From: a virus
Virus record (IMG/VR): IMGVR_UViG_3300029778_000002
Length of the DNA stretch: 61,948 nt
Direction: 5' to 3' (one strand)
The notes under the pieces were generated by a model. It had not been told where the DNA came from. It searched no databases and saw only the letters and a list, made by a program, of their open reading frames with translations. A program made the translations under genes and the position numbers. Position 1 is the stretch's first letter, and every line of letters starts with the position of its first letter. Of this stretch, positions 1 to 61,948 are shown in pieces.

Positions 1-123
1 CATAATTCTCCGTATTTACCTCCCCATCGTAAAGTTTGTAATAGAACGCCAAACTCGTTCTCGATTTTCCGCTTCCTACGCCTCCGCATAAGATGCAGCC
101 GATTTTCATACGGTTGATCGCAT
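1..123. repeat. Terminal direct repeat, copy 1 (identical to 61826..61948)
   Basis: The first 123 nt match the last 123 nt base for base. This is typical of a circular or circularly permuted genome linearised with an overlap. Confidence 0.9.
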
Positions 124-9870: not shown

Positions 9871-9893
9871 AAATATCAATCCTTTCTTATTGT

Positions 9894-10526: not shown

Positions 10527-10568
10527 AAAAACAAAAAAGTAAGAGCCGCAGATTTCTCCACGGCTCTC
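10527..10568 (-). terminator. Rho-independent terminator (conserved family)
   Basis: The minus strand reads GAGAGCCGTGGAGAAATCTGCGGCTCTTAC plus a T-run. G-U pairs extend the stem only in the minus-strand RNA. Confidence 0.7.
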
Positions 10569-11002: not shown

Positions 11003-11788
11003 TCAATAGCCGCCCAGCCACTTCGGAGGCGTGTGATACTCCAGCGTCAGGCAGGGCATTCCATCCTCGTCCAGCCGGGACGCATAGAAAATATCAACGT
11101 TAAGCCCCGAATCCGTGTCCCAACCCAGCAGGTCACCGTTGACGCAGTGGTCGATGCCCAGATAGTCGAACAGATCATTCTCGCTCACCCGGAAGTCACT
11201 GAGCAGCTGTTTGTTGACCCCATTGACGGCCTTTTCGATCATGGCCTTGGTCGTCCAGAAGTAGGTGTTGGTCAGGCTTTCCCAGCACTTCACCCGCTGG
11301 TCGTAGGAAACATCGGTTGTGGCAAGGTTCTTGGCAGGCTGGATGGTTGCCGGTTCGGGGCACTTGGCCATCTTTTCCAGTGCAATGGTCTCCCGGATCT
11401 CCTGTTCCTTCTCGGGGCCGATGGCCTCCAGCACCTTGTCCTGATAGGTCTTGAGCGCGCTCTCAGAAAGGGTGCACGCCGCGGCCAGTGCAGCATTCCG
11501 CCGCTCGTCCACATGGACTGCACCAATGACGCAGCCCGCAGACAGCACCATGCTCAGCGCAGTCGGCACGTACACCGGGCCCGCCGTCTTGACAATGGTC
11601 TTCACGTCCAGCTTTTCCACGCCCAGCTCCTGCTTTTTCTCGTCCAGCAGGATCATGGCCTTGGGGGTGGCCGTCACAGCGAAATAGACCGCCGTGATGC
11701 TTCCCGTGATCGCCAGACCACCCAGGATCTTGGATGCGTTCTTTCCTGCGCTCCTGCGCACTGCCTTTGCAAATGTTTTCAGGTTCAT
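11003..11788 (-). CDS. Membrane-anchored protein, paralog family member 2 (261 aa)
   Basis: GGAGGT SD. N-terminal TM, an RRNAALAAACTLSESALKTYQDKV block and a GWDTDSGLNVD C-terminal region. Confidence 0.65.
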   Translation of the reverse strand: MNLKTFAKAVRRSAGKNASKILGGLAITGSITAVYFAVTATPKAMILLDEKKQELGVEKLDVKTIVKTAGPVYVPTALSMVLSAGCVIGAVHVDERRNAALAAACTLSESALKTYQDKVLEAIGPEKEQEIRETIALEKMAKCPEPATIQPAKNLATTDVSYDQRVKCWESLTNTYFWTTKAMIEKAVNGVNKQLLSDFRVSENDLFDYLGIDHCVNGDLLGWDTDSGLNVDIFYASRLDEDGMPCLTLEYHTPPKWLGGY

Positions 11789-11804: not shown

Positions 11805-11844
11805 ATTTATAAAAAGAAAGAGCCTACGATTTCTCGTAAGCTCT
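11805..11844 (-). terminator. Rho-independent terminator (conserved family)
   Basis: Minus strand GAGCTTACGAGAAATCGTAGGCTC followed by TTTCTTTTTAT. Confidence 0.7.
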
Positions 11845-11850
11845 CGCCTT

Positions 11851-12309: not shown

Positions 12310-13128
12310 TCATTCTCCTTTTTTCTCGCAGTAATCCGCATAGGGATCGTAGTTGATATAATTCTCGATGGGTGGCTGGAAAGCATCCACGTAGTAGACT
12401 TCAAGGCCGTCGTCTGTTGTCTGCTTGTAATACCGGAAGTCGATCCAATAATATTCCCATTCATTTGCCAGATAATCCGCCGACCAACCAGTTGTGTCCC
12501 CTTCCGGCAGATAATCCAGTCCGAGGTAATTATAAAGGTTGTTCATGGATGCCTCGCCATCCAGAGCAAAATCGCGGTTCATATGGTAGAATGCATCTGT
12601 CAATTCCACCTCTGTAGCATGGAAATATCTTTTTGAGATAGGCTCGTAGCAGAGTAGTTTTTCCTCTGCCATCTTGTCACGAACTTCAGGCAGCTTTTCT
12701 TCGCTGATCTGCTCCTGAATTTCTGCTTCTTTTTCCAGCCCGATGTTCTCAATCACCTTCTGCCGGTAGGTCTGATAGGTCTTTCCCAGTGCCATGTACG
12801 CCGCGGTCAGACTCGCGATCTGCTTTTTGTTCAGCGCGTTGGAGCCCAGGATGCAGGCAATGGTACCGCCGCCAAGAATCGCAGCCGGAACGTATGCTTT
12901 CCAGCACATCAGAACAATTTGTTTCTTTGTCGGAGGCCCTTCTGTCACGCCGAACTCGTCTTCGTTGAACTTTGTCAGCTCCTTGTCAACTTCAAGTATG
13001 TGCTTTGCCTTCGTGGTTGCCCGCCCGGTTTCAATGGCCGTTGCTACCACGCCTACAGATGCCGCCACCGCCAGAATGGTTCCGCCGTGTTTGCGCAAGA
13101 ATTTCGCGCATGTTTTCGTCAGTTTCAT
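12310..13128 (-). CDS. Membrane-anchored protein, paralog family member 3 (272 aa)
   Basis: GGAGGT SD. N-terminal TM, an NKKQIASLTAAYMALGKTYQTYRQKV block and a GWSADY C-terminal region. Confidence 0.65.
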   Translation of the reverse strand: MKLTKTCAKFLRKHGGTILAVAASVGVVATAIETGRATTKAKHILEVDKELTKFNEDEFGVTEGPPTKKQIVLMCWKAYVPAAILGGGTIACILGSNALNKKQIASLTAAYMALGKTYQTYRQKVIENIGLEKEAEIQEQISEEKLPEVRDKMAEEKLLCYEPISKRYFHATEVELTDAFYHMNRDFALDGEASMNNLYNYLGLDYLPEGDTTGWSADYLANEWEYYWIDFRYYKQTTDDGLEVYYVDAFQPPIENYINYDPYADYCEKKGE

Positions 13129-13146: not shown

Positions 13147-13181
13147 AAAAATAAAAGAGCCCACGATTTCTCGTAAGCTCT
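13147..13181 (-). terminator. Rho-independent terminator (conserved family)
   Basis: Minus strand GAGAGCTTACGAGAAATCGTGGGCTCTTTTATTTTT. Confidence 0.7.
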
Positions 13182-13189
13182 CGATTTGG

Positions 13190-13708: not shown

Positions 13709-13738
13709 AATCGTTCAACCTCCAAAAATAAAAATGAA

Positions 13739-13808
13739 AAAAGAGAATGGGCCTCGAACCCATAACCTCCACAATGAAGTGGCGCTCTACCATTTGAGCT
13801 ATCTCCTC
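13739..13808 (-). tRNA. tRNA-like gene with a non-canonical anticodon arm (identity undetermined)
   Basis: Minus strand GAGGAGA-TA-GCTC-AAATGGTA-GAGC-G-CCAC-TTCATT-GTGG-AGGTT-ATGGG-TTCGAGG-CCCAT-TCTCTTT. The acceptor, D and T arms are standard. The anticodon stem closes a 6-nt loop (8 nt if the last pair opens). Confidence 0.5.
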
Positions 13809-13833
13809 CATAAGGGAACATGAATTTTTCGCG
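13808..13833 (-). promoter_or_regulatory. 26-nt promoter-like motif, copy 4 (drives the tRNA-like gene)
   Basis: Minus strand CGCGAAAAATTCATGTTCCCTTATGG. Its last G is nucleotide 1 of the tRNA-like acceptor stem. Confidence 0.6.
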
Positions 13834-14112: not shown

Positions 14113-14149
14113 CGAAAAAGAAAGAGCCCACGCTTTCGCATCAGCTCTT
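14113..14149 (-). terminator. Rho-independent terminator
   Basis: Minus strand GAGCTGATGCGAAAGCGTGGGCTC followed by TTTCTTTTT. Confidence 0.65.
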
Positions 14150-15509: not shown

Positions 15510-15561
15510 TTTGAAAATCTCCTTTTAATAATGTAGTGGATAAAACGGTCTTCTGCGTGAT

Positions 15562-15599
15562 GAAAAAATAAAAGAGCCTACGATTTCTCGTAAGCTCTC
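15562..15599 (-). terminator. Rho-independent terminator (conserved family)
   Basis: Minus strand GAGAGCTTACGAGAAATCGTAGGCTCTTTTATTTTTT. Confidence 0.7.
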
Positions 15600-15605
15600 T
15601 ACGCC

Positions 15606-15839
15606 TTAGATGTCGTTGCGAATCAGAAACAGGTCATTTCTGCTTCGAGTTGCTCTCACAATTCCTCCTGCCCGGATCAATGTAATTGCATTTACATAAG
15701 CCGCGCGTGCATTTTTTGCATCCTTGTATTCGTCCGTATTCACAAACATCACTTTCTGGTTGCTTTCGATAAACACCCGCACCTTATCCATTGCATTCAC
15801 ATAGCCCCGGTCAAAGTTCGTCTTTACTCGATAGTTCAT
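15606..15839 (-). CDS. Hypothetical small protein (77 aa)
   Basis: AAAGGAGA SD before ATG 15839. Confidence 0.55.
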   Translation of the reverse strand: MNYRVKTNFDRGYVNAMDKVRVFIESNQKVMFVNTDEYKDAKNARAAYVNAITLIRAGGIVRATRSRNDLFLIRNDI

Positions 15840-15879
15840 AAATAATAATCTCCTTTATTCATATTCGGAAGACATCCTT

Positions 15880-15905
15880 CCATAAAGCACGGGGAAAATT
15901 TCGCG
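15880..15905 (-). promoter_or_regulatory. 26-nt promoter-like motif, copy 8
   Basis: Minus strand CGCGAAATTTTCCCCGTGCTTTATGG, 41 nt upstream of ATG 15839. Confidence 0.6.
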
Positions 15906-15932
15906 TTGCTTCGTTACGGCCTATTCTAAAAT

Positions 15933-15972
15933 AGAAAAAAGAAAAGAGCGCATGTTTCCATACGCCCGTTTT
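15933..15972 (-). terminator. Rho-independent terminator
   Basis: Minus strand GGGCGTATGGAAACATGCGCTC followed by TTTTCTTTTTT. Confidence 0.6.
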
Positions 15973-15986
15973 CCGGTCAGAATCCA

Positions 15987-16133
15987 TCAGCGGATACCAC
16001 ACCGAACATCATTCAGCATGAGGAGTTCTTCGCCCTCATTCCAGCCTGCATACTTGTCGCTATACGACTCGTTAAATGCGGCCATAATAGAGTTCATCAT
16101 TTCCTCAAAGCCCTTCACAATATTCTTCAGCAT
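15987..16133 (-). CDS. Small acidic protein (48 aa, not in ORF track)
   Basis: TAGGAGGT SD before ATG 16133. Encodes MLKNIVKGFEEMMNSIMAAFNESYSDKYAGWNEGEELLMLNDVRCGIR. Confidence 0.4.
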   Translation of the reverse strand: MLKNIVKGFEEMMNSIMAAFNESYSDKYAGWNEGEELLMLNDVRCGIR

Positions 16134-16165
16134 AGTAAATACCTCCTAAAATTGTTTATTTCTTT

Positions 16166-16191
16166 CCATAATAGAAGGTGAAATTTTCGCG
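16166..16191 (-). promoter_or_regulatory. 26-nt promoter-like motif, copy 9
   Basis: Minus strand CGCGAAAATTTCACCTTCTATTATGG, 33 nt upstream of ATG 16133. Confidence 0.6.
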
Positions 16192-16196
16192 TCTGC

Positions 16197-16229
16197 GTAA
16201 AAAATAAGAGCCTGTGTTTCCACAAGCTC
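16197..16229 (-). terminator. Rho-independent terminator
   Basis: Minus strand GAGCTTGTGGAAACACAGGCTC followed by TTATTTTTT. Confidence 0.65.
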
Positions 16230-16237
16230 CATTTTGA

Positions 16238-16348
16238 TCAGTGTTTCTTCTTTGTTCTGCTTTTCACCTCGTTTGTCTTTGCTCCGATCAGCTTTGCCAG
16301 CCTGACCAGAATCACAACGATCAAAATCCAGATAATCAAGTTAAACAT
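16238..16348 (-). CDS. Tiny membrane peptide (36 aa, not in ORF track)
   Basis: AAAGGTGG SD before ATG 16348. Encodes MFNLIIWILIVVILVRLAKLIGAKTNEVKSRTKKKH. Confidence 0.35.
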   Translation of the reverse strand: MFNLIIWILIVVILVRLAKLIGAKTNEVKSRTKKKH

Positions 16349-16364
16349 ATTAACATACCACCTT

Positions 16365-16390
16365 TCATAAAGGCGGCTGTATTTTTCGCG
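16365..16390 (-). promoter_or_regulatory. 26-nt promoter-like motif, copy 10
   Basis: Minus strand CGCGAAAAATACAGCCGCCTTTATGA, 17 nt upstream of ATG 16348. Confidence 0.55.
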
Positions 16391-16396
16391 TCCAGA

Positions 16397-16432
16397 TAAA
16401 AAGAAAAAGCCGCAGATTTCTCCACGGCTCTC
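16397..16432 (-). terminator. Rho-independent terminator (conserved family)
   Basis: Minus strand GAGAGCCGTGGAGAAATCTGCGGCTTTTTCTTTTT. Confidence 0.7.
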
Positions 16433-16436
16433 GCCT

Positions 16437-17420: not shown

Positions 17421-18383
17421 TTATCTCATGTTTTTCAGAGGACTGTGCCTGCGGTACAGCTCTGCCAGATCCTCCTGTGTCAGGTCAAGATAAGCCTGTT
17501 CTGTCACGGTCACACTACTGTGCCCCAGAATCCGGCTCAGGGTGTAAATATCTCCGCCATTCATCAGGAACCGTTTTGCAAAGTTGTTCCGGAACACATG
17601 CGGATGAACGTTCTTCAAACCAACTCTCTTAGCGTACTTTCGGACGTTGGCTTCAAAATTATTTGCTTGCAGCGGTTTCCCCTCGTTTGTACAAAATAAA
17701 AAGTCGCTGTCACGGTAGCGGTCTTTGTATTTGCTCCACTTCCGGATCTGCCCTGCCATCTTCTCCGAAAAGAATACCGATCTGCCCCGTTTTCCTTTCG
17801 TGTTTTTCGCTGGCAGCCAGATGAACCGTTTTGCCAGATTTATGTCATTGACTTGGATCAGCAGGCATTCGCTGATTCTCATACCGGTGTCCATAAGGAG
17901 CTGAATAATCACAAAGTCCCTGTACTCACTGAATTTGGAAATATCCAGCGCTCTCAACAGCCGTTTGAAGTCGTCATCTGAGATAAATTCCAGCGGCTTG
18001 TGCTCTGTCTTCGTAAAGTCGCCACGCTTGATCGGCGATTTCCGAAGAATATCCTCATCGACGCACCAGTTAAAAAACACTCTGAGATTCCGCAGGTAGT
18101 TGTTGATCGTCACATCTGAGACTTGTTTTCCGTAGTCAGGACGGTTTTCCGGATAATTTCTGGCATCCTGATTCGTCACAGCGGTATACTTTCCCCGCCT
18201 CCGAATTTCCTGAATGTATCCCTGAATCGTCAGATGCGTAACATTTTCCGTGCGCTCAATTCCAATTTTGTACAAATGTTGCATGAACAACCTCAACGTC
18301 TGCTCATAACTGCCAATCGTCTTCATACTCAGTCCCTTTAACTCGCATGCCTCCAGAAACATTTCTACATCTTTTTCCACCAC
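17421..18383 (-). CDS. int: Tyrosine integrase (XerC/D-phage integrase family, 320 aa)
   Basis: C-terminal catalytic signature HPHVFRNNFAKRFL...LGHSSVTVTEQAYL. Start placed at GTG 18383, 6 nt after GGAGG; the track TTG at 18455 has no SD. Confidence 0.9.
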   Translation of the reverse strand: MVEKDVEMFLEACELKGLSMKTIGSYEQTLRLFMQHLYKIGIERTENVTHLTIQGYIQEIRRRGKYTAVTNQDARNYPENRPDYGKQVSDVTINNYLRNLRVFFNWCVDEDILRKSPIKRGDFTKTEHKPLEFISDDDFKRLLRALDISKFSEYRDFVIIQLLMDTGMRISECLLIQVNDINLAKRFIWLPAKNTKGKRGRSVFFSEKMAGQIRKWSKYKDRYRDSDFLFCTNEGKPLQANNFEANVRKYAKRVGLKNVHPHVFRNNFAKRFLMNGGDIYTLSRILGHSSVTVTEQAYLDLTQEDLAELYRRHSPLKNMR

Positions 18384-18455
18384 AAAAAACCTCCGGAATC
18401 CATTCGGCTCCACACCCAATAAATCCCGGAGATTTATCGCCCTATCAACAATCAA

Positions 18456-39138: not shown

Positions 39139-39591
39139 TTACACTTCTGTGTATTGAGCGTACATACGGCCTCTCGTTTCGTTCTTATACGCTTTTTCCG
39201 CCGCCATATTTGTGAGCGCCCTTGCTACGGCATGTTTGGCCGCATTTTTAGCAGCCGAACTAACTTTACCTCCAGTCAGATAGTCATAGACATATACGCT
39301 TGCTACCGCCCTTGAAACAGCCTTTCCTCGTGCAATTCGCTTCTTTTCTCTCTCCACAGCGGTCTTTTTATCCATTCCCTTGGAATAATCCTTTTCGATT
39401 CGGTTTGCGCCTTTAACGCCATAGTCCATTCGATACATTGTTTTTTGATAACTTGTAAGCTTACGATCAGGGTCGCCATATTTTTTCTTTCCCGCCGCAG
39501 TTAAAGTACCATCAGGGTTCTGGTAACGCCGTACACCCCACTTCATGCCCTTGATGCCATGATGATACAGCTCATCTTTATAAACTTGCAT
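39139..39591 (-). CDS. YHxGIKGMKWGVRR-leader family protein A (150 aa)
   Basis: Start moved to ATG 39591 (AAGGAGG SD). N-terminus MQVYKDELYHHGIKGMKWGVRRYQNPDGTLTAAGKKKY. Confidence 0.6.
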   Translation of the reverse strand: MQVYKDELYHHGIKGMKWGVRRYQNPDGTLTAAGKKKYGDPDRKLTSYQKTMYRMDYGVKGANRIEKDYSKGMDKKTAVEREKKRIARGKAVSRAVASVYVYDYLTGGKVSSAAKNAAKHAVARALTNMAAEKAYKNETRGRMYAQYTEV

Positions 39592-39601
39592 TTTTTCCTC
39601 C

Positions 39602-40030
39602 TTATGCACCATGTGCCTTCATCGTTGCGGTCAGTGCGCATCCAACAACAGCGTTCTTAAACGCCCCAGATTCAACAATACTCTTGCCGAGCTTCATCGC
39701 GTTCGAACCATTATTATAAAGCGTTGTAACAGTCCCAAGCGCCGTGGCAGTTGCTCCGGCAATTTTAATGGCTTTCTGTAGCTTGCTGGGAGAAGCAGTA
39801 AGCCGTTCATACTGTTGCTCTTTCTGCAATCGATTGATTCGAGCATTCAGTTCGCTGTCACTCATTTCACGGACACTTTTCTTTGTATGTGCTCGTGTAT
39901 AGTCCTCGTGATCTTGACTATAGTGTTTCTTTCCTTCAGAAGTAAGTGTACCATCCTTGTTCTGGTATCGTCGCACGCCCCATTTCATGCCCTTGATGCC
40001 CCAATGATAAAGTTCATCCCTGTATACCAT
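39602..40030 (-). CDS. YHxGIKGMKWGVRR-leader family protein B (142 aa)
   Basis: Start moved to ATG 40030 (GAGGAGGTG SD). N-terminus MVYRDELYHWGIKGMKWGVRRYQNKDGTLTSEGKKHY. Confidence 0.6.
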   Translation of the reverse strand: MVYRDELYHWGIKGMKWGVRRYQNKDGTLTSEGKKHYSQDHEDYTRAHTKKSVREMSDSELNARINRLQKEQQYERLTASPSKLQKAIKIAGATATALGTVTTLYNNGSNAMKLGKSIVESGAFKNAVVGCALTATMKAHGA

Positions 40031-40098
40031 AATGTTCACCTCCTCACAAACAAAAAAAACGCACCAGCAATTAAGCTGATGCATTCAGATGTACCGTA

Positions 40099-40305: not shown

Positions 40306-40728
40306 TCACCTCTTAGTGTATTTTCGGATTACATCATGCCCTGTTTTCCAGACAGTCGTGACACAGCCATTTTCGGGGTTTACGTTTACCGTAGCGTGCT
40401 GGCCAATAAACCGTTGACTAGGCTGTCCCTTCTCATTATACCGCACCTTTATTGTATCAGAGTTTAGCGGCTTTTGCAACGCATCCAGCAATCCTTCCAG
40501 AGTCACCTGTCTGGTAGGGTCTTGGGTACGGTCCAGTGCATGAATCGATAGACCTTTCACAAGGACACCATTTGAGGTATAAAATGGTTTTCTGAATTTC
40601 CGAGCAGCTCTCGCTTCGATTGAATATCGGTCATGCGCGAGTTGTTCTTTTGTCCTCCGAACACCCCACTTCATACCTTTGATTCCGTAATGGTACAGTT
40701 CCGTTGTACCATCATTCCATCGCCACAT
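40306..40728 (-). CDS. Leader-family protein C with C-terminal RNase-toxin-like domain (140 aa)
   Basis: Start moved to ATG 40728 (AAAGGGG SD). N-terminus LYHYGIKGMKWGVRR. The C-terminus IHALDRTQDPTRQVTLEGLLDAL...FIGQHATVNVNPENGCVTTVWKTG resembles DUF4258/BECR-fold toxins. Confidence 0.5.
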   Translation of the reverse strand: MWRWNDGTTELYHYGIKGMKWGVRRTKEQLAHDRYSIEARAARKFRKPFYTSNGVLVKGLSIHALDRTQDPTRQVTLEGLLDALQKPLNSDTIKVRYNEKGQPSQRFIGQHATVNVNPENGCVTTVWKTGHDVIRKYTKR

Positions 40729-40750
40729 TTCTGCCCCTTTCGATTTTCTA

Positions 40751-40779
40751 TTGCAAATTACTTTCCTATGTTGTATGAT
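40751..40779 (+). promoter_or_regulatory. Sigma-A type promoter for the plus-strand moron
   Basis: TTGCAA (40751-40756), 17-nt spacer, TATGAT (40774-40779). GAGGAGG SD and ATG 40808 follow. Confidence 0.6.
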
Positions 40780-40807
40780 AAACATATCAACATGAGGAGG
40801 ACTCACC

Positions 40808-41860
40808 ATGGCGGACGACAAACAGCTTTCCATGCAGAACCTTAATTGCGAAGTGACCGCAAGCGATGTTTCTTTTGATTTTGGCGATACATCCCGCTTT
40901 CGGAAGATTAAATTTCCGGAGCAGGCTGGCATTACAGCAAACGCCCTTCTACAGCTGGTTCCGGCGCAGCTTGTGGCTGGCACGGCATCCAATCTGTATG
41001 TTCTCCATTTTCCGAAGGGCATTCAGGGGGCTTTAATGAACCTCCATCAGGGCGGTCAGTCCACCACAATGATAGACGCAGCAGGCAGTTTTGCCGGAAG
41101 TGCATCTCTGTATAAGGTCAATCCCACAGCAGTTGCTGCCTTCCAGATGTTCAGTGTAGCATCTTTTGCAACAGGCCAGTATTTTCTTGCAGATATCAGC
41201 TCCAAGCTGACAGAGGTCAACCGGAAGCTGGACGACCTTCTGGCATTCCTTCAGGCATCCAAGCGTACTGAGCTGCTGTCAGAGCTTACCTTCGTAAAAT
41301 ATGCGCTCGCAAATTACGCAACTATCATGCTCAGTGAACCGCAGCGCATGGCTACGATCGGGAATCTTCAGCGAGCAAAAATCAAAGCGGTTGCGGACAT
41401 AGAATTTTACACAGAGCAGCTGGAGAGTTCTGCTGCTGCAAAGTCCAACGAAAATCAAGCAAAAACTGTATTGCAGAACAAACAAGGAATTGATCTCGCC
41501 TCGCAGCTTTACGCCATCAGCACGATCATGGAAGCGTATTATTCGCAAAACTGGAACCAATCCTATCTTGCAAATATCAGCGCTGATGCAAAGCCTCTGT
41601 TTGCACTGACGCAGAACCGCATGATCAGTGCCATAACAAAATTCTCCGACAGAATCAGCAAGGACCTTGAAAGTAAGAAAAAGGGCCTGCTGAAAGGTGA
41701 TGTATCACAGAGCGAACATAAAGTTCTGAAACTGTACGACACTCTGAATTCGCAATCGGAGACTCCGCTTCTTGCGTTTATTGAAGAAGCACTGGACAAG
41801 CCCTCCGAGCCATTTGAACTCTACCTCCGTTCTGACGGAAGTGTTTATCAAAAAATCTAA
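40808..41860 (+). CDS. Unknown-function protein (350 aa), opposite-strand moron
   Basis: Own promoter, SD and terminator. Reads as mostly helical. Inserted between terL and portal. No family recognised by eye. Confidence 0.7.
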   Translation: MADDKQLSMQNLNCEVTASDVSFDFGDTSRFRKIKFPEQAGITANALLQLVPAQLVAGTASNLYVLHFPKGIQGALMNLHQGGQSTTMIDAAGSFAGSASLYKVNPTAVAAFQMFSVASFATGQYFLADISSKLTEVNRKLDDLLAFLQASKRTELLSELTFVKYALANYATIMLSEPQRMATIGNLQRAKIKAVADIEFYTEQLESSAAAKSNENQAKTVLQNKQGIDLASQLYAISTIMEAYYSQNWNQSYLANISADAKPLFALTQNRMISAITKFSDRISKDLESKKKGLLKGDVSQSEHKVLKLYDTLNSQSETPLLAFIEEALDKPSEPFELYLRSDGSVYQKI

Positions 41861-45836: not shown

Positions 45837-46385
45837 TTATTTATACTGATACTTAACCCATGGATCATCAGGGAGTACCGACGATTCGTCCAACTTAAAT
45901 CCGGATTTCTCGGCGATTTTTATAGATCCAGCATTATCTTTTCTGGCCCACCAGACAATTTGGTCGTATTCGTCTTTATGTGCGTCCAGCCATTTCATGC
46001 CTTTTTCGGCTACTTTTGAGCAATAGCCCTTGTTCCGATACTTACTTCCAGCTCTTGTTCCAATGGAGACCGCCACTCCTTTTTCATCACCAATGATGTC
46101 AAAAAAAGAAATAGGCACATCCCCTGATTTTTCAACAAAACGTTTTACGTATGCATACCCATCCTCGGCTCTTTCCTGATAAACATCCCCATCAAGGTTG
46201 AGGAGTTCTCTGTCTTTTCGAGACATTGTTTTTACAATTTCGTTTACAGCATCCATGTTTTTGTTTACATCCATGGCACGCTTCCGCGCTTTCCCCTCAC
46301 TCGTCAATGTTCCATCCGGGTTCTGGAACCGGCGCACGCCCCACTTTTGGCCCTTGATGCCATGGTGATAAATATAATCGCTCAT
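45837..46385 (-). CDS. Leader-family protein D with C-terminal GNAT acetyltransferase-like domain (182 aa)
   Basis: Start moved to ATG 46385 (GGAGGAAATAAA-ATG). N-terminus IYHHGIKGQKWGVRRFQNPDGTLTSEGK. C-terminus RNKGYCSKVAEKGMKWL...NAGSIKIAEKSGFKL. Confidence 0.6.
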   Translation of the reverse strand: MSDYIYHHGIKGQKWGVRRFQNPDGTLTSEGKARKRAMDVNKNMDAVNEIVKTMSRKDRELLNLDGDVYQERAEDGYAYVKRFVEKSGDVPISFFDIIGDEKGVAVSIGTRAGSKYRNKGYCSKVAEKGMKWLDAHKDEYDQIVWWARKDNAGSIKIAEKSGFKLDESSVLPDDPWVKYQYK

Positions 46386-46386
46386 T

Positions 46387-46830
46387 TTATTTCCTCCATG
46401 GGCAGGTGTCGCCCGGCTTCCGTTCACCATCCGGCATATTTTTATTTTGACCGGTGCCATAATGGATCACCTTGTGCGTTGCCGCCGAAACACAAATGGC
46501 GTTCTCCGGATCAAGCAGTTTTTCGCTGTGCTGGAGAACGTCATTTTTTGTTATGGGGTTTATGTGGTGGATGGAGATCTTCGGTCGGATCGGCCTTCCG
46601 TCCCGCAGCACCCAGTCTGTGATCGGATGGTCTTTGCACCCCAGGTCGCATCCCATGTCCCGGGCGATGATTCTGTCCCTGAACTGCCGCCACTCTCTCG
46701 ATTGGTAGAAGTCCTGGTTCAGCCATCGGTCAAACCCAAAGGTGTCTCTCCCCACTTCCCCGTGCAGCTGTAAATACTCCAGCCTCTCCTCGTATGTCGG
46801 CAGGGTGCAAAGTTCCGTGTAGCTTTTCAT
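46387..46830 (-). CDS. HNH endonuclease (147 aa)
   Basis: Start placed at ATG 46830 (ATGA overlap). Contains ISIHHINPITKND...NAICVSAATHKVIH. Confidence 0.8.
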   Translation of the reverse strand: MKSYTELCTLPTYEERLEYLQLHGEVGRDTFGFDRWLNQDFYQSREWRQFRDRIIARDMGCDLGCKDHPITDWVLRDGRPIRPKISIHHINPITKNDVLQHSEKLLDPENAICVSAATHKVIHYGTGQNKNMPDGERKPGDTCPWRK

Positions 46831-47337: not shown

Positions 47338-47371
47338 TGCAATAACCTCGTTTCACATTCTTATTTTGCTT

Positions 47372-47524
47372 TTGCAAGGGTTCATGGGAGTCGCAGTAGT
47401 ACCAGTTAAGCCTGTCTCATTTGAAAGGAGAAGAAAAAGCAGATCATGCCCAATGGAGGTTGAACATCGTGAAAGCCCTGAACCCAAACATATAGGAGGA
47501 TACTACTCCCATGAGCCCTTGCAA
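47372..47524. repeat. Long-range inverted repeat (about 27 bp stem, one 3-nt bulge, one mismatch) in the packaging-module leader
   Basis: TTGCAAGGGTTCATGGGAGTcgcAGTAGTA (47372-47401) pairs with TACTACTCCCATGAGCCCTTGCAA (47501-47524). Confidence 0.8.
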
Positions 47525-47751
47525 AAACCGCCGAAGCCCCGGTCTACACCCCAGAACCTCGGCGATTTCCCATATGACTGTAAATCTTAACACCTGCTGT
47601 GGATACAGGCATCGAGAGTTTACACAAATATAATCGGCAGCTTTCGCTGTCGGAGCCTTAAAGCCAAAATATCAATTTTCCCTCCGGGGAAATATCAAAG
47701 ACCGGCGCGATTTGAGAGGGGGTGTCGATTTTGAGACCCCCTCCCTATGGT

Positions 47752-48021
47752 TTACGCGGTTTGGCCGAGCGTGTCCTCGTCGGGCACAGTAATCTTGAGC
47801 TTCTTGTAAATGTTTATCGGGTCGGCAGCAACGATCTTGTCGATTGCCTTCTCAATTTCATAGGCGTTTTCATTGTCCGTGAACTGAGAGGAGGTCTCGG
47901 CGATCCTCATAAGCAAACCGGAAGAGTTGTAGCCATGTGCGATATCATACTGATACCACTTCTCGAACTCATCGTACGGACTGTACGGGTTATCAAAAGT
48001 GGTGAGAAAGCACCGAACCAT
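47752..48021 (-). CDS. Hypothetical protein (89 aa)
   Basis: Clean ORF, followed by the GAGGGGGT...ACCCCCTC hairpin at about 47715-47745. Confidence 0.5.
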   Translation of the reverse strand: MVRCFLTTFDNPYSPYDEFEKWYQYDIAHGYNSSGLLMRIAETSSQFTDNENAYEIEKAIDKIVAADPINIYKKLKITVPDEDTLGQTA

Positions 48022-48049: not shown

Positions 48050-50824
48050 TTACTTGTCGAGTGCGCTGTAAATCGTAGATTTAGGCACACCGCATGCCTT
48101 GGCAACCTCATCATATGACGCGCCAAGATTGAGCATTGCTTTTGCCTTTGCCAATTTGGCAGAAGACAACGTAGCCGTTGCTTTCGGCATTGCACGCTTT
48201 ACAATTTCGTCAGAATCAGACGAATTAAGGAACTTCGTCAACATATTGTCGGAAATTGCGCCAGCCTGAACAGCTTCCCATTCTCTGTCCGTGAAGGTAA
48301 CCTTGGACTTGCGTCCGCTTGCACCAACAGAATCGCGAGCACGCTGCATCTCGACAGAAGAGATCTTCTTGATTACCTTCTTATCTTCCGAAATGTTGGG
48401 ATCAAGCCCCTGTTCCTGAATCTTCGCCTTAATATTCGCGTTCGCAATCAGCATTGCTTTGCGCTCTTTAGGCTTGTTAGCGATCATGTTGTTATACTTT
48501 TCTTTCAGAGAAGCAACCTCAGGCGCATAGGTCTTGGCGGCAGAAGGACTGTATTCAAGTCCCTTCATATTTACCGCCTCTTTGCGCGCCTGATTGGCCA
48601 TAGCCTTCAACTTGTTAGAGAAGTCCGCGTACAGGTTCTCCTGAATAGTACCAGAAGACAGTGTTCGCGCATCTTTGGTCTCCGATATAAGACTGACCGT
48701 GTCCTCGGCCTTACGTTCCTTACCCGTCTTAGGGTCAACGAAGGTACGTCCACTTTCTTTGTAGATGTATTCACCAGTTTCCTTATCGACTCGAATACTA
48801 CCACGGCGCTCGGGTACACGAACCGTCTGCTTACGGCGAGACAGGAGCGTGGATGCGCCACCATAGTGTATAGCGCCTTCCTCATCCACACGAATCTGCC
48901 ACTTCTGCTTCAGCTCGGGAATGCCATTCTCCTGCTCAGACCGCTTGTAGTCCAACTTATGTTTTTCAGCATCGATAACGACCATGGAGTGTTTAACGGC
49001 ACGTGCCAGCTCGTCCTCGTCGGCACCACGCAGTGTCATGTCAGTGATGAGGTTGGAAATCACGCCCATTTCGCGCTGCTTGTCTTCTTTCTTCATCAAC
49101 CTGACATTATTTGGATTGCCTTCAGGAACTGCATAAGCGGTCTTGGGATCAAATCCTTCCAATGCTTTCAGCGCACGGGTGGACTTAATGTTGACTTTGT
49201 CAGTAACCGGGATTGCCATGACTGTGTCGCCATCGAAATCAGCACCAGACAGCCGCTCTGCAACCTTTGCATTGATACCGATTGCATCCTGAATTGCACC
49301 GAGATTCCGCTTGCCGCTGACATTCTTGTTGTTGACAGTCACGATGGGAATCTCAAAGGTACCTGCATGGGGATAACGGATCAGTGCAAGCCTGGTGCCA
49401 TTCTCATAGGTGGGGCAATAAGCCTCGGTCTCCTTGATCTTATTGATTGGCAGGATAACCTTCGTGGACTGGCCCGGGAAAGCAGACGCTTTCAGGGTCA
49501 TGGACGTTCCTTCGACGGTATCAGCAAAATCGTAGAGCAGCTTCTTTTTGACCGTAGGATTATCATAGTGCATGATCTCGTCATACTGCGCCTGATAATC
49601 CGCAACGGTAAGCTTCAACTGATTCTCAATCAGCTTCTTGGGCTGCTTGGAAAGGAACTGAGAAGAGACATTCCGAGACATCGTGTCCCAGTCGCCTTCC
49701 TCCTTCAGCTTGTTGATCGGCGAGAGGTGCTCTTTGCCGTCATCACCGATATACATACTCTGGCCGTTGGCCTTGATAGCTGCGCCAAACGGGTTGTCAG
49801 GATCCGCTTTTGCTTCTTTAAGGACCTTCATCTTGGGCGTGCCAGAAGGCTTATTGGTGTTGAACATAACGTCCACACCATCCGGCAGATCATCAGAATA
49901 GACTGCCATGCCCTTCAGATAATGGTCGCCGTCAACAAGGATGCGAACCTGCGCATAATGGCTCTTGCCGAGATCAAGGTCAGGAACACCACGGCGAATT
50001 TCCATGACACCGTCTTTATCCAGACCGCCTTCATCGCCATAACGAATTGCAACTCGACTGGAATCCAGACTAGAGGGGCGCTGAAGCTTCGTGAAGGTCT
50101 CGCCGCCATCATCTGTATGATAATCGCCAAGTGAATCGATCTGTTCCTGATGATTGTAGGCATACTTCTGATCGAACTCTGGTTTCGCAAGCACCATGAT
50201 ATTGGTCTGCTGGCGATTGTTTGTCGGTTGCTTAATGCCTACGCCGTAACGCTTATAACCGTATTCGGCCTCTAACGTATATGCCGCATCCTGAAGTTCA
50301 GTATCAGTTACGCCCAACGCAAAGTTTGCGCCCTCCGAAACATCGATCATTCCCTTTTTATCGACTTCTTTTTTCAGAGTTTCGGCGATGTTTTTTGCAC
50401 GCTGCGCTTTTTTGTCTGCATTTCCGGCATATTTGGATCGAACGCTCGATTCGCTCATTCCAAGCTGGTTGGCAATTTCAGTCCAGCCAAGGTGATCTTC
50501 GTCTTTCAGCTTATGGATCTGCTCGTATTCTGATGTTTTCCGCTCATGAATGGCAGTTCGCTTTGCCACACGGAATTCGGACAGGCTCATCTGATACTCT
50601 TTCGGAAGAGAGTCATTAATGCTCTCCAGAATATCTTTCTCAGACAGCCCTTTCTTCTTCAGAACTTCCACACGAGACAGGAAATCGCCGGAATGCTGAT
50701 ACGGATTATCGCCGGAACCCCAAGGATAGCGACCAGAATGCCGCTTGGTACCATAGTGCTCCAGGATATTGCTTTCGGAAGTGATGCCAAAATAAGAACG
50801 GAGGTCTTTTTCAATCGGATTCAT
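48050..50824 (-). CDS. Single-chain two-barrel (DPBB) RNA polymerase candidate, YonO-like, with N- and C-terminal HTH modules (924 aa)
   Basis: Beta-like barrel: GDHYLKGMAVYSDDLPDGVDVMFNTNK (about 49862-49935), compared with bacterial beta GDKMAGRHGNKGV...DMP...G.PVDIVLNPL. Beta'-like barrel: LIRYPHAGTFEIP...SGADFDGDTVMAIP (DFDGD at 49226-49240), compared with beta' LNRAPTLH...NADFDGDQMAVH. Confidence 0.65.
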   Translation of the reverse strand: MNPIEKDLRSYFGITSESNILEHYGTKRHSGRYPWGSGDNPYQHSGDFLSRVEVLKKKGLSEKDILESINDSLPKEYQMSLSEFRVAKRTAIHERKTSEYEQIHKLKDEDHLGWTEIANQLGMSESSVRSKYAGNADKKAQRAKNIAETLKKEVDKKGMIDVSEGANFALGVTDTELQDAAYTLEAEYGYKRYGVGIKQPTNNRQQTNIMVLAKPEFDQKYAYNHQEQIDSLGDYHTDDGGETFTKLQRPSSLDSSRVAIRYGDEGGLDKDGVMEIRRGVPDLDLGKSHYAQVRILVDGDHYLKGMAVYSDDLPDGVDVMFNTNKPSGTPKMKVLKEAKADPDNPFGAAIKANGQSMYIGDDGKEHLSPINKLKEEGDWDTMSRNVSSQFLSKQPKKLIENQLKLTVADYQAQYDEIMHYDNPTVKKKLLYDFADTVEGTSMTLKASAFPGQSTKVILPINKIKETEAYCPTYENGTRLALIRYPHAGTFEIPIVTVNNKNVSGKRNLGAIQDAIGINAKVAERLSGADFDGDTVMAIPVTDKVNIKSTRALKALEGFDPKTAYAVPEGNPNNVRLMKKEDKQREMGVISNLITDMTLRGADEDELARAVKHSMVVIDAEKHKLDYKRSEQENGIPELKQKWQIRVDEEGAIHYGGASTLLSRRKQTVRVPERRGSIRVDKETGEYIYKESGRTFVDPKTGKERKAEDTVSLISETKDARTLSSGTIQENLYADFSNKLKAMANQARKEAVNMKGLEYSPSAAKTYAPEVASLKEKYNNMIANKPKERKAMLIANANIKAKIQEQGLDPNISEDKKVIKKISSVEMQRARDSVGASGRKSKVTFTDREWEAVQAGAISDNMLTKFLNSSDSDEIVKRAMPKATATLSSAKLAKAKAMLNLGASYDEVAKACGVPKSTIYSALDK

Positions 50825-51381
50825 GCTGCCACTCCTAACAAAATATCAGTGATGATCGGGTCGAACTCTTTGATTTTAGCGATGACGGGGCTGATTTCCT
50901 CTTCAGTGGGGTTCTCGACCCAAACTTCATCGTTCTGGTAGATACGGAGCTCCATCCGAATATCTTTCGGGTGGTATCCGTACTCCAGACAGAACAGAGC
51001 GGCATAAATATAGAGCTGCTCCATATGTGCAGGAACAGCTCCGGTTTTTAAGTCGTGGATGCGAAGGAACCCATCGTTGAACGAAATGGCATCCGCAGTT
51101 CCATAGCAGTTGTCGCTGTAATACAGCACCTGCTCGGTATCCATGCGGAAACCAATGGCATCGTTCACGTAGGTATTGAGGGTTTTCTTGTTCTTCGGCA
51201 GTTTTTGCTTCAGATCAATGCACTCTGCTGCAAATGCGTGCAGCCGTGTTCCCCGTTCCTTCGCCTGGTAATTGAGAACTGCATTGGTCAATCTATCTGC
51301 GTCATAGTTCAACCAATGGTAGTTACTTGCTCCGAGGAGGGCATGTTTCCCCGTGAGCCTCGAATGATCTCGCCAGTTCAT
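50821..51381 (-). CDS. PD-(D/E)XK nuclease (Cas4/RecB-like exonuclease, 186 aa)
   Basis: Start moved to ATG 51381 (AAGGAGGAAG SD). GTADAISFNDGFLRIHDLKTG carries the D...D-x-K core. Confidence 0.55.
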   Translation of the reverse strand: MNWRDHSRLTGKHALLGASNYHWLNYDADRLTNAVLNYQAKERGTRLHAFAAECIDLKQKLPKNKKTLNTYVNDAIGFRMDTEQVLYYSDNCYGTADAISFNDGFLRIHDLKTGAVPAHMEQLYIYAALFCLEYGYHPKDIRMELRIYQNDEVWVENPTEEEISPVIAKIKEFDPIITDILLGVAA

Positions 51382-51643
51382 TAAGAACTTCCTCCTTGTT
51401 TTCAGGATAGATAAAGGCCGCAAAACTCATCTCGTCCATCTGGTGAACGTAATAGTCCTGATTTGGACGATGAGATGCACTCGCTGACTTCTTGCCCTCC
51501 AATGCACCCCATGTTGTGCCGTAGAGAACCAAGAGATCGGGGATTCCCTGAATCTCGTTTGGGTCAAGATGGACAACCATGCAGCCAGGAAAGCGTTCTT
51601 TCAGCTCCCTTATCAATCCTGTCTTGAATTTGTTTTCGAGCAT
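51323..51643 (-). CDS. VRR-NUC / Hjc-like nuclease (106 aa)
   Basis: GGAGGT SD. GIPDLLVLYGTTWGALEGKK is a PD...E-x-K motif. Confidence 0.55.
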   Translation of the reverse strand: MLENKFKTGLIRELKERFPGCMVVHLDPNEIQGIPDLLVLYGTTWGALEGKKSASASHRPNQDYYVHQMDEMSFAAFIYPENKEEVLNELARSFEAHGETCPPRSK

Positions 51644-51698: not shown

Positions 51699-51724
51699 CC
51701 ATAAAAGGGGATGTTTTTCTCGCG
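51699..51724 (-). promoter_or_regulatory. 26-nt promoter-like motif, copy 12
   Basis: Minus strand CGCGAGAAAAACATCCCCTTTTATGG, 56 nt upstream of ATG 51643. Confidence 0.55.
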
Positions 51725-51767
51725 TGAGTTTTTAGGAAAAAATGTGAATTTTTAGGAATTTTCAGAG

Positions 51768-51808
51768 CAAAAGAAAAAGCCCCTGCGTTTTTCGCGCAGA
51801 GGCTGTTG
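51768..51808 (-). terminator. Rho-independent terminator
   Basis: Minus strand GCCTCTGCGCGAAAAACGCAGGGGC followed by TTTTTCTTTT. Confidence 0.7.
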
Positions 51809-54102: not shown

Positions 54103-54136
54103 TAAAAATAAGAGCCGCAGATTTCTCCACGGCTCA
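54103..54136 (-). terminator. Rho-independent terminator (conserved family)
   Basis: Minus strand GAGCCGTGGAGAAATCTGCGGCTCTTATTTTTATT. Confidence 0.7.
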
Positions 54137-54142
54137 ATGCCT

Positions 54143-58523: not shown

Positions 58524-58560
58524 ATAAAAATAAAGAGCCGCAGATTTCTCCACGGCTCTC
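58524..58560 (-). terminator. Rho-independent terminator (conserved family)
   Basis: Minus strand GAGAGCCGTGGAGAAATCTGCGGCTCTTTATTTTTAT. Confidence 0.7.
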
Positions 58561-60775: not shown

Positions 60776-61948
60776 AAAATTTCCTCTCATTAAACGCTTT
60801 CTTCGAGTTCAGGGCTCTCGAAATTGCCAGATCAATACCACTCCTACTCTTCAGATGGTAGTAGTACAGATCCTTGTACGGTGTATTCAGCCGGTCAATG
60901 CGCCCCGAGGCCTGCTCCATGATCTTATATGAGTAGTTCTGGCTGTAAAATATAATGGTGTCCGTCTTGATGCAGTTCCAGCCTTCAGCACCGGCATTGT
61001 ACTGCACCAGATACACCCACCTGTCGCCTTCAGGAAGCGGCTGATGCTTGTGCCCGTTCCATTGTGCAACTTCGGTGTCCTTGCCATAGTCCAGACCCAT
61101 CAGAATATCAAGCTCATAATCAAAATTATAGAAGATAATGACCCTAGGTCTGCCTTTGCAAATATCCAGCACTTTTTCTTGTCGGCTTGCATCAGCGTTC
61201 ACCAACTTCCGCAGCAGATAGCAGAACTCGCTGGCGGTCTCGATTGGTTTGTTCTCCCAGAGGTTCCACCGGTTCTTGCAGATTGAAAGATACTTCACCT
61301 TGTCATACTCCACAAATACATTCTCATGGTGCGATACAGTCGGCCGCTCGAAGTCCATGTCAACCAGAATCCGTTCCCGCAACCGTACCAAGCGCTGGGT
61401 ATTCAGATACCGGTCGATCTTCGGGTACTTCGTGCAGAATTGGCTGTATACCACATGCTGGTTGTTGAAGTCCGTTCTGTTTCGGTAGAACCCATTGGCG
61501 ATGAACACCGGGATATAATCCGTCCAGCAGTCCCCGGGGGTGGCGCTGAGCAATATCCACTCGTTATTTTGCGTAATTTTGTAGAAAGATTTCACCCATG
61601 CGCCCTTTCCAACGACTCGCTGCTCGTCAAATATAAAGAACGCATTCTTCACGCCAACGTACTTTCCGATATTGTTCCAGGAATCCACCACGACCTTGTG
61701 CTCGTAAATATCATGCTCTGGATCTGTAGACATATAGAAATGGGCCAGTTCTTCGTCCCACTCTCCCGTATCCCGTTTCCGGGCAGTCGTGATGATGTAA
61801 AGATCCGGGGGCTCTGTCATGCGTACATAATTCTCCGTATTTACCTCCCCATCGTAAAGTTTGTAATAGAACGCCAAACTCGTTCTCGATTTTCCGCTTC
61901 CTACGCCTCCGCATAAGATGCAGCCGATTTTCATACGGTTGATCGCAT
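60762..61948 (-). CDS. SF2 (DEAD/SNF2-like) helicase, 3' part; the 5' end continues at 124..157 across the circular junction
   Basis: Walker A GGVGSGKS, FDEQ (motif II), LSATP (motif III) and QASGRIDR (motif VI). The full-length protein is about 406 aa when the genome is circularised. Confidence 0.85.
   Translation of the reverse strand, partial: AINRMKIGCILCGGVGSGKSRTSLAFYYKLYDGEVNTENYVRMTEPPDLYIITTARKRDTGEWDEELAHFYMSTDPEHDIYEHKVVVDSWNNIGKYVGVKNAFFIFDEQRVVGKGAWVKSFYKITQNNEWILLSATPGDCWTDYIPVFIANGFYRNRTDFNNQHVVYSQFCTKYPKIDRYLNTQRLVRLRERILVDMDFERPTVSHHENVFVEYDKVKYLSICKNRWNLWENKPIETASEFCYLLRKLVNADASRQEKVLDICKGRPRVIIFYNFDYELDILMGLDYGKDTEVAQWNGHKHQPLPEGDRWVYLVQYNAGAEGWNCIKTDTIIFYSQNYSYKIMEQASGRIDRLNTPYKDLYYYHLKSRSGIDLAISRALNSKKAFNERKFYGAG
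61826..61948. repeat. Terminal direct repeat, copy 2 (identical to 1..123)
   Basis: See copy 1. Confidence 0.9.

Follow-up and report, generated by a model that had tools for sequence, protein, structure and literature searches.

Two predicted barrels in a 924-residue protein

We analyzed a 61,948-nucleotide stretch of viral DNA (IMG/VR record IMGVR_UViG_3300029778_000002, hereafter the window), focusing on a 924-residue open reading frame (ORF) on its minus strand (48050-50824, ATG start) whose product is very probably a single-chain two-barrel RNA polymerase (RNAP). The first 123 nucleotides of the window (1-123) are identical to its last 123 (61826-61948), indicating a closed circular assembly with a genome of 61,825 bp. 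The integrase gene is internal to this circular assembly, which points to a phage genome in its free form and not to an integrated prophage. DNA and protein comparisons identify the genome as a relative of the temperate Faecalibacterium phage FP_oengus, and FP_oengus gp55 is the closest relative of the polymerase candidate (86.6% identity). The ORF product matches PHROG 4291, a family named "RNA-dependent RNA polymerase", over its full length (E=0, 1199.6 bits, residues 15-923 against positions 6-906 of the 909-position profile). A HMMER search run exhaustively over 1.84 billion representatives of 50%-identity clusters found 2,314 that match the ORF at E<=0.001 and 847 at E<=1e-30, and nearly all of the best 150 matches span residues ~20 to ~920. 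The gene and the features of its central region are as follows:

48050-50824, minus strand: single-chain two-barrel RNA polymerase candidate of the PHROG 4291 family (ORF call, PHROG match, identity to FP_oengus gp55, AlphaFold2 and Foldseek)
49850-50053, minus strand: predicted beta-like double-psi beta-barrel region, residues 258-325, including the block HYLKGMAVYSDDLPDGVDVMFNTNK (invariant residues; strands in both structural models)
49208-49468, minus strand: predicted beta'-like double-psi beta-barrel, residues 453-539, with R483-Y-P485-H486 (invariant residues; hhalign alignment to the YonO family)
49226-49240, minus strand: DFDGD, residues 529-533, putative Mg2+-binding catalytic loop (translation; invariance)
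48899-49090, minus strand: conserved helical hairpins after the catalytic barrel, residues 579-642 (invariant residues; model helices)

Three peptides in the translation carry the catalytic motifs: the beta-like block GDHYLKGMAVYSDDLPDGVDVMFNTNK (residues 299-325), LIRYPHAGTFEIP (residues 481-493), and SGADFDGDTVMAIP (residues 526-539). An earlier reading of this DNA, made from the sequence alone (the sequence-only reading), had quoted motif peptides in the order beta-like, then beta'-like; all of them are present in the translation, and their coordinates were checked. Conservation was assessed in an alignment of 63 sequences, comprising the window protein and 62 representatives of different 50%-identity clusters that are 42-59% identical to it. 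Invariant positions in this alignment are K304, G305, P314, G316, and D318 in the first peptide, R483, P485, and H486 in the second, and the entire run S526-G-A-D-F-D-G-D533 in the third; others include D271, G272, R294, K336, M586, G587, N591, D595, D618, K621, and H622. The motifs remain invariant after the addition of two more homologs, phage 1706 orf75 and ReqiPoco6 gp106. Judged from these alignments, conservation of the motifs is far beyond chance, and the two blocks on whose conservation in homologs the sequence-only reading had depended are both conserved: across the 63 sequences, DFDGD is invariant throughout, and the KG..DLP..VDVMFN block is invariant at its K-G...P-G-D positions.

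The residues shared across the two-barrel superfamily are, in Rpb1 numbering, D481/D483/D485 and R446/P448 and, in Rpb2, K979, K987, and D837 (Rpb2 list from PMC2919709). In the window protein, D529-F-D531-G-D533 supplies the DxDGD loop of the superfamily and is invariant in a set of 44 diverse sequences as well as in the 63. R483-Y-P485-H486 supplies the R-x-P motif and aligns with R492-S-P494-H495 of YonO, a polymerase of prophage SPbeta, while the invariant pair K304-G305 matches YonO K271-G272. R294 is tentatively the second basic residue, as YonO has K261 at the same spacing, and D271, likened to YonO D249-G250, is a guess for the aspartate of the beta-like barrel. Within the beta-like region (residues 258-325), R277, Y290, and Q292 are invariant in addition to D271, G272, R294, K304, G305, P314, G316, and D318, and beta strands are present across residues 258-322 in both structural models described below. 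After the catalytic barrel, the models contain helices at residues 579-598, 603-622, 626-632, and 635-642. This segment, in which L592 and M596 are invariant along with M586, G587, N591, D595, D618, K621, and H622, is possibly a bridge-helix or trigger-like element.

An AlphaFold2 model of the whole protein, built on the 63-sequence alignment, had a mean predicted local distance difference test score (pLDDT) of 84.2 and a predicted template-modeling score (pTM) of 0.70. When this model was compared by Foldseek with the PDB, the top 19 matches were all single-chain two-barrel RNAPs at probability 1.00, among them QDE-1 (E=4.6e-9), P74-26 gp62 (3.5e-8), P23-45 gp64 (2.2e-7), and plant RDR2 (2.5e-7); after these single-chain enzymes came multisubunit RNA polymerases, matched through their largest subunits (1e-3 to 1e-2). 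Global template-modeling (TM) scores were low (~0.28) because of the helix-turn-helix (HTH) arms of the protein, and the core (residues 240-760) was therefore modeled alone. The core model (pLDDT 92.4, pTM 0.87) had two-barrel RNAPs as its top 23 PDB matches, again the same enzymes at probability 1.00. It matched QDE-1 at E=7.6e-11 (TMq 0.47-0.49, ~485-500 of 521 columns), P74-26 gp62 at TMq 0.42 and TMt 0.38, and RDR2 at TMq 0.44. A library of viral protein models yielded phage entries labeled as RNA-dependent RNA polymerase (RdRP) and P23-45 gp64; crAss-like entries appeared only weakly. The two-barrel fold anticipated by the sequence-only reading is therefore what both models match, and by prediction the ORF product contains two double-psi beta-barrel domains. 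The best explanation of these results is that the window polymerase sits in the QDE-1/RdRP-like branch of the superfamily, together with YonO of SPbeta and P23-45 gp64.

Helix-turn-helix units and the N-terminal peptide

The core is flanked by additional conserved elements:

50687-50764, minus strand: N-terminal motif, residues 21-46, LEHYGTKRHSGRYPWGSGDNPYQHSG (near-invariance; predicted disorder in AlphaFold2)
50585-50695, minus strand: HTH unit 1, residues 44-80, degenerate in the window protein (hhalign to units 2 and 3, 97.4%, E~1e-11)
50417-50533, minus strand: HTH unit 2, residues 98-136, sigma-70 region-4-like (Pfam Sigma70_r4_2)
48053-48175, minus strand: HTH unit 3, residues 884-924 (Pfam HTH_23; hhalign to unit 2, 99.0%, E=4.6e-18)

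In the translation, HTH motifs are apparent at residues ~106-131 near the N-terminus and ~895-922 at the C-terminus. The first matches Pfam Sigma70_r4_2 (residues 106-131, E=2.3e-6, 27.6 bits against a gathering cutoff of 25.7) and the second HTH_23 (residues 895-922, E=1.5e-5, 25.1 bits against a cutoff of 24.6). Each of these domains was found in 40 of 44 family members, with a best E-value for Sigma70_r4_2 of 2.8e-12. The sequence-only reading had described HTH-like segments on both sides of the core, unlike YonO, and this description is borne out: both segments pass the Pfam thresholds, and YonO has no HTH. The family consensus, moreover, repeats the same HTH signature three times. Residues 44-80, 98-136, and 884-924 are paralogous, with hhalign probabilities of 97-99% between their sub-alignments (E from 1e-11 to 5e-18) compared to less than 7% for control segments, and unit 1 has model helices at residues 48-57 and 62-72. 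The likeness to sigma is at the level of the domain; the protein is not a full sigma factor, as it scores 19.5 against TIGR02937, for which the cutoff is 42.9.

Ahead of the HTH units lies a peptide (residues 21-46) with the consensus HYGxxRHSGRYPWGSGxxPYQH that is nearly invariant across the family. H23, G25, S30, G31, R32, G36, and G38 are invariant in the 63 sequences and remain so when the 1706 and ReqiPoco6 proteins are included, and residues 13-45 are predicted to be disordered (pLDDT <50). The peptide may serve as a signal for interaction or incorporation. The idea that it is a targeting tag present on other phage proteins too was considered and rejected, as tblastn finds the motif in the polymerase family alone, once per genome.

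Gene order, hairpins and the intergenic gap

Read along the minus strand, the polymerase gene follows genes for a helicase, ThyX, an endonuclease, and a Cas4/RecB-like exonuclease and is followed by a small phrog_4303 gene and a 414-nt gap. Beyond the gap are phrog_4259, HNH, connector, TerL, portal, capsid-protease, and tail genes, a 2,300-residue tape measure, a fiber gene, and an endolysin gene, after which come the integrase, a set of small genes, and a primase-polymerase. The features nearest to the polymerase gene are:

51778-51804, minus strand: strong terminator-like hairpin upstream of the endonuclease-exonuclease-polymerase operon (10-pair stem, 7 GC, T-run)
50821-51423, minus strand: Cas4/RecB-like PD-(D/E)XK exonuclease gene (phrog_3953, E=6e-76; Pfam DUF2800/PDDEXK_1)
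47752-48021, minus strand: small conserved gene, 89 residues (phrog_4303, E=8e-31)
47338-47751, minus strand: 414-nt non-coding gap separating the polymerase operon from the packaging and structural genes (FP_oengus alignment, repeats, RNA fold)

This arrangement recurs in related phages. The exonuclease gene is annotated as the same neighbor in many relatives, the phrog_4303 gene, whose 89-residue product has no Pfam match, also follows the polymerase gene in phages 1706 (orf76) and ReqiPoco6 (gp107), and the polymerase gene occupies the same place, at the right genome end next to cos, in ~250 phage records. The polymerase ATG overlaps the exonuclease stop codon as ATGA, and the two genes are thereby translationally coupled. 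This overlap, together with the hairpin at 51778-51804 that precedes the operon, indicates that the polymerase is expressed with replication and recombination genes. The gene had been described in the sequence-only reading as the head of the packaging, structural, and lysis block. It does adjoin a block of ~28 kb that runs from packaging genes to endolysin, but it belongs to the replication/recombination operon and is not the first gene of the late operon.

The same reading had noted that this block lacks a family of hairpins seen elsewhere in the genome, and that part stands. The family (GAGAGC..GAAA..GCTCT) has nine copies compared to 0.06 expected. Every copy is on the minus strand, and the interval from 16.4 to 54.1 kb contains none; one unrelated strong terminator-like hairpin is present inside the late block (40057-40086). 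The copies have the form GAGAGC-NNNN-G-N-GAAA-N-C-NNN-GGCTCT followed by a T-run:

942-968, 10542-10568, 11819-11845, 13156-13182, 14123-14149, minus strand: hairpin family copies
15573-15599, 16406-16432, 54111-54137, 58534-58560, minus strand: hairpin family copies, continued

The outer stem and the GAAA loop are conserved, and the inner stem covaries (CCGTGG/CTGCGG compared to CTTACG/CGTAGG). The family is confined to the small-gene and accessory regions. Some copies follow paralogous gene cassettes, and duplication may explain part of the sequence conservation.

Within the 414-nt gap, an 86-nt block (47657-47742) is almost identical to FP_oengus, compared to ~84% identity in the flanking DNA. 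The block contains an 11-bp GC-rich hairpin (47716-47743), two copies of TCTCAAA(A)TCG, two copies of TTGATATTT, and the small hairpin TTTCCCCGGAGGGAAA. A 22-nt inverted repeat (47505-47526 and 47370-47391) immediately precedes the first gene beyond the gap; its arms are 95% complementary and 113 nt apart. Relative to FP_oengus, the two arms carry compensatory changes, and the RNA fold of 47338-47560 has a z-score of -2.43; the repeat might form a stem in a leader RNA or provide two sites for protein binding. Relatives with cos ends have their genome termini at the position that matches the gap, and for this reason the elements in the gap may serve packaging, transcription, or both. The 86-nt block is accordingly a candidate cos or pac site, a candidate late promoter, or both.

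Two repeated sequences were considered as promoter motifs and rejected. TTGATATTT has 12 copies on the coding (minus) strand of the window and none on the other, compared to 0.23 expected, and its contexts are mixed: three are spacers between ribosome-binding site and start codon, several are in-frame coding sites, and two are in the gap. The three spacer copies are part of translation starts of the form AAAGGA-TTGATATTT-ATG/GTG. A tandem of TTCCTAAAAAYTCAC (two copies, 51724-51758, minus strand, 20 nt start to start), which lies between the 51778-51804 terminator and the endonuclease-exonuclease-polymerase operon, is purely local, with no copy elsewhere in the genome, and may be an operator or promoter element. 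Strand-specific enrichment of 9-mers in non-coding DNA recovered just the hairpin family and ribosome-binding sites, and sigma-70-like promoter matches were at chance level in all three segments scanned.

We also observed several features away from the polymerase gene. Three paralogous phrog_2152 genes (8884-9879, 11003-11788, and 12310-13128, minus strand; E=1e-69 to 1e-74) lie in the hairpin-punctuated region beside the integrase. A tRNA-like gene (13738-13809, minus strand; Rfam tRNA, 47.5 bits) has an anticodon loop of 4 nt compared to 7 and is assigned no anticodon by ARAGORN; it could be a degenerate tRNA or the remnant of an integration site. At 15510-16436, ~0.9 kb has no coding-strand ORF of at least 80 residues and contains four terminator-like hairpins (15571-15600, 15946-15967, 16207-16230, and 16405-16432). 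An Rfam search gave no match in this segment, which may hold very small genes or non-coding RNAs. Across the packaging region, small proteins share phrog_32444/7021 domains (45837-46460, 40306-41022, 39602-40084, and 39139-39612, minus strand), and a 350-residue ORF without a PHROG match is present on the opposite strand between TerL and portal (40808-41860, plus strand). FP_oengus also has an opposite-strand gene between TerL and portal.

Proposed function and relation to known polymerases

We propose that the beta-like barrel (residues ~258-325) and the beta'-like barrel (residues ~453-539) form one active site, in which the three DFDGD aspartates would hold the catalytic Mg2+, and that this core carries three paralogous sigma-region-4-like HTH units, two before it and one after. 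The template would be the double-stranded DNA of the phage, as it is for the characterized phage relatives. Made from the replication/recombination operon and translationally coupled to the exonuclease gene, the polymerase would then transcribe the adjacent ~28-kb packaging, morphogenesis, and lysis block, as YonO does in SPbeta. The fused HTH units would give the sequence-specific DNA contacts that sigma gives bacterial RNAP, in which case no separate specificity factor would be needed. The claims of late-gene transcription and self-promoter recognition rest on gene position and domain content and are plausible; we see the chances of a late-gene, self-targeting role as evenly balanced. The statement as a whole, that this is a two-barrel RNAP with HTH units that is DNA-templated, transcribes late genes, and is self-targeting, we are slightly inclined to accept.

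Several observations weigh against this proposal. The window protein itself has no match to the Pfam RdRP family PF05183 at E<=10. A profile match to double-psi beta-barrel polymerases, to which the sequence-only reading had tied its claim, was found in 13 of 44 family members (E<=0.001, best 1.7e-6); as far as sequence can tell, membership in PF05183 holds at the family level via homologs and not for the window sequence alone. Neither the single protein nor the 63-sequence profile retrieved a polymerase from the PDB by sequence; both searches returned just HTH parts and designed helical repeats. Because a YonO-family profile likewise finds no polymerase in the PDB, this negative result is uninformative for the superfamily, and absence of PDB sequence matches is typical of this fast-evolving group. 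Comparison by hhalign gave no match to the single YonO sequence and one weak match to a 25-sequence YonO family profile (E=0.027, probability 1.8%, 84 columns), which pairs window residues 459-549 with YonO 469-555 and places RxPH and DxDGD in register. Of the three beta-like barrel residues found throughout the superfamily (two lysines and an aspartate), K304 alone is secure and the others are assigned tentatively. Repeat and strand-specific enrichment searches found no repeated promoter-like motif in the genome. The absence of terminators from the late block was rejected as evidence for a dedicated polymerase, as it is uninformative about which polymerase is at work: tailed phages commonly have long late operons that lack terminators, regardless of the enzyme that transcribes them. 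A search of the literature available to us found no biochemical study of the PHROG 4291 polymerase family. In addition, the homolog in phage 1706 is labeled "structural protein", which points to a different or additional role.

One interpretation of this label is that the polymerase is packaged in the virion and delivered with the DNA, after which it would transcribe the first-entering genes, in the manner of N4 vRNAP, crAss-like phi14:2 gp66, and P23-45 gp96, and possibly act later as well. In the 1706 GenBank record, homology calls are written as "putative ...", and the bare term "structural protein" is given to 11 ORFs, namely eight in the morphogenesis module plus orf62, orf71, and orf75, the 1029-residue polymerase homolog (EU081845, 4083-7172). 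In the window, orf71 corresponds to a true connector protein (Pfam Phage_connect_2, E=6e-33); this and the pattern of labels make the 1706 labels look experimental, suggesting virion proteomics. The evidence is nevertheless a single annotation whose basis we infer, and large proteins that bind DNA can be carried along when virions are purified. In other papers that cite 1706, we found no information on its proteome. The "structural" label of ReqiPoco6 gp106 (GU580942, 2998-5718) is by similarity only, and RefSeq has renamed orf75 "RNA-dependent RNA polymerase". A virion protein would suit the position of the gene directly upstream of the virion genes and, more speculatively, the invariant yet disordered N-terminal peptide, which could be an incorporation or ejection signal. 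However, translational coupling ties the gene to the replication module, and the N-terminal motif is on no other protein of these phages. The phage is also temperate, with an integrase gene at 17421-18455 and a close relative, FP_oengus, known as a prophage. Because prophage induction brings no virion-delivered proteins, early genes cannot depend on a virion polymerase. We consider virion packaging unlikely. A polymerase that both reads promoters self-sufficiently through its three HTH units and is carried in the virion and delivered with the DNA is decidedly unlikely; if true, it would be the first two-barrel RNAP carried in virions of ordinary-sized siphoviruses that infect Gram-positive hosts, and one of the phages concerned would be a temperate phage that reportedly occurs in as many as 40% of human gut viromes.

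The family name raises the alternative of an RNA template, whose copying could yield, for instance, double-stranded or antisense RNA. Its closest solved structures (QDE-1 and RDR2) and its only Pfam family match (PF05183) are indeed polymerases of eukaryotic RNA interference, but the name "RdRP" is inherited from the title of the Pfam family. The characterized phage members YonO (PMC5467207) and P23-45 gp64 (PMC10770324) are DNA-dependent, and QDE-1 also uses DNA templates (PMC9508822). Given a double-stranded DNA phage genome with no known RNA stage, and three fused HTH units of a double-stranded-DNA-binding type that fits a DNA-templated enzyme, RNA copying is highly improbable. Alternatively, the polymerase could help replication, by synthesizing primers or through transcription that activates an origin, instead of serving gene expression. 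Its gene is the final large one in the replication/recombination module and is coupled to that of the exonuclease, and Koert et al. put it in a conserved "end of the replication module" block (bioRxiv 10.1101/842583). The genome, however, already codes for a 1334-residue primase-polymerase (phrog_4210, E=0) and a helicase. No two-barrel phage RNAP is known to act as a primase, and we regard this role as very doubtful. Finally, the protein might be a DNA-binding regulator with a non-catalytic central region, as the HTH parts alone reach Pfam thresholds in the window protein and most of the ~250 phage records annotate a "helix-turn-helix DNA-binding domain protein". The models nevertheless give the ~500-residue core a two-barrel polymerase fold, and the catalytic residues are all invariant across homologs of 42-59% identity, which is unexpected for a dead scaffold; the probability of this alternative is close to nil, and the annotation in most of these records could be corrected.

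Identification of this family as a polymerase was already known as a prediction, from databases and a 2021 preprint, and is confirmed here rather than new. FP_oengus gp55 is annotated as "putative RNA polymerase" in GenBank and "RNA-dependent RNA polymerase" in RefSeq, and the phage 1706 protein was included among five YonO-like families by Ruprich-Robert and Thuriaux in 2010 (PMC2919709). In the preprint, Koert et al. (bioRxiv 10.1101/842583) analyzed the same family and described an RdRP-like core, DxDGD, HTH motifs at both ends, an HHpred match to PF05183 (95.7% probability, 286 columns), and a conserved block of helicase, HNH, RecB exonuclease, HTH protein, and small protein; they named the product "HTH domain-containing protein / putative RNA polymerase". 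Compared with the preprint, the present analysis appears to add the three paralogous HTH units, the invariant disordered N-terminal motif, the structural match, and the 1706 "structural protein" label. Very large and well conserved, a family that fuses such a core to three sigma-4-like HTH units is a natural system in which to study promoter finding by minimal single-chain two-barrel polymerases. The family has culturable hosts (Arthrobacter, Gordonia, Streptomyces, and Lactococcus), and the phage group includes Oengus, among the most prevalent Faecalibacterium phages in gut viromes.

The window protein is another member of the FP_oengus gp55 family, with no difference of substance: it shares the same full-length family, motifs, HTH ends, upstream exonuclease gene, and downstream small gene. 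It is 34-45% identical to proteins of Arthrobacter, Gordonia, Streptomyces, Rhodococcus, Microbacterium, and Lactococcus phages. With YonO, a single-chain RNAP that is DNA-dependent and reads the late operon of SPbeta (PMC5467207), it shares a single chain of ~840-920 residues with the beta-like K-G, R-x-P-H, and DxDGD in the same order, and yonO likewise lies just upstream of the terminase, portal, and structural block of a temperate siphovirus. In contrast, YonO has no HTH and ends in a zinc-ribbon-like CxxC...CxxC in which C799, C802, C816, and C819 are invariant. It belongs to a separate PHROG family with marginal sequence similarity, and its activity is demonstrated whereas that of the window family is predicted. 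Full-length homology to YonO and the YonO domain layout, which define the strict YonO family, were not found in the window protein. Its family is thus a sister family of YonO that probably works like YonO, not part of it. For YonO itself, the promoter and the need for helper factors remain to be determined (PMC5467207).

QDE-1 and RDR2 are the best structural matches of the core but are only 9-14% identical to it, and these eukaryotic enzymes have RNA-templated silencing activity and no HTH flanks. The non-virion enzymes P23-45 gp64 and P74-26 gp62 of Thermus phages are, like the predicted enzyme, phage-encoded, compact, monomeric two-barrel RNAPs (core match E=1.5e-8), and gp64 recognizes its own promoter motif (PMC10770324). 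They differ in being ~590 residues long without HTH flanks, in transcribing early rather than late genes, and in having no detectable sequence similarity to the window protein. The virion RNAPs N4 vRNAP, phi14:2 gp66, and P23-45 gp96 would be comparable in their virion association if the 1706 label reflects proteomics. All three are packaged and delivered with the DNA, gp96 being fused to the tape measure, and virion RNAPs are far larger (~2,200-5,000 residues) or, for N4, of a different fold. Although gp66 and gp96 are also two-barrel enzymes, the virion RNAPs are not among the top structural matches of the window protein, which lie with QDE-1, RDR2, and the compact phage polymerases.

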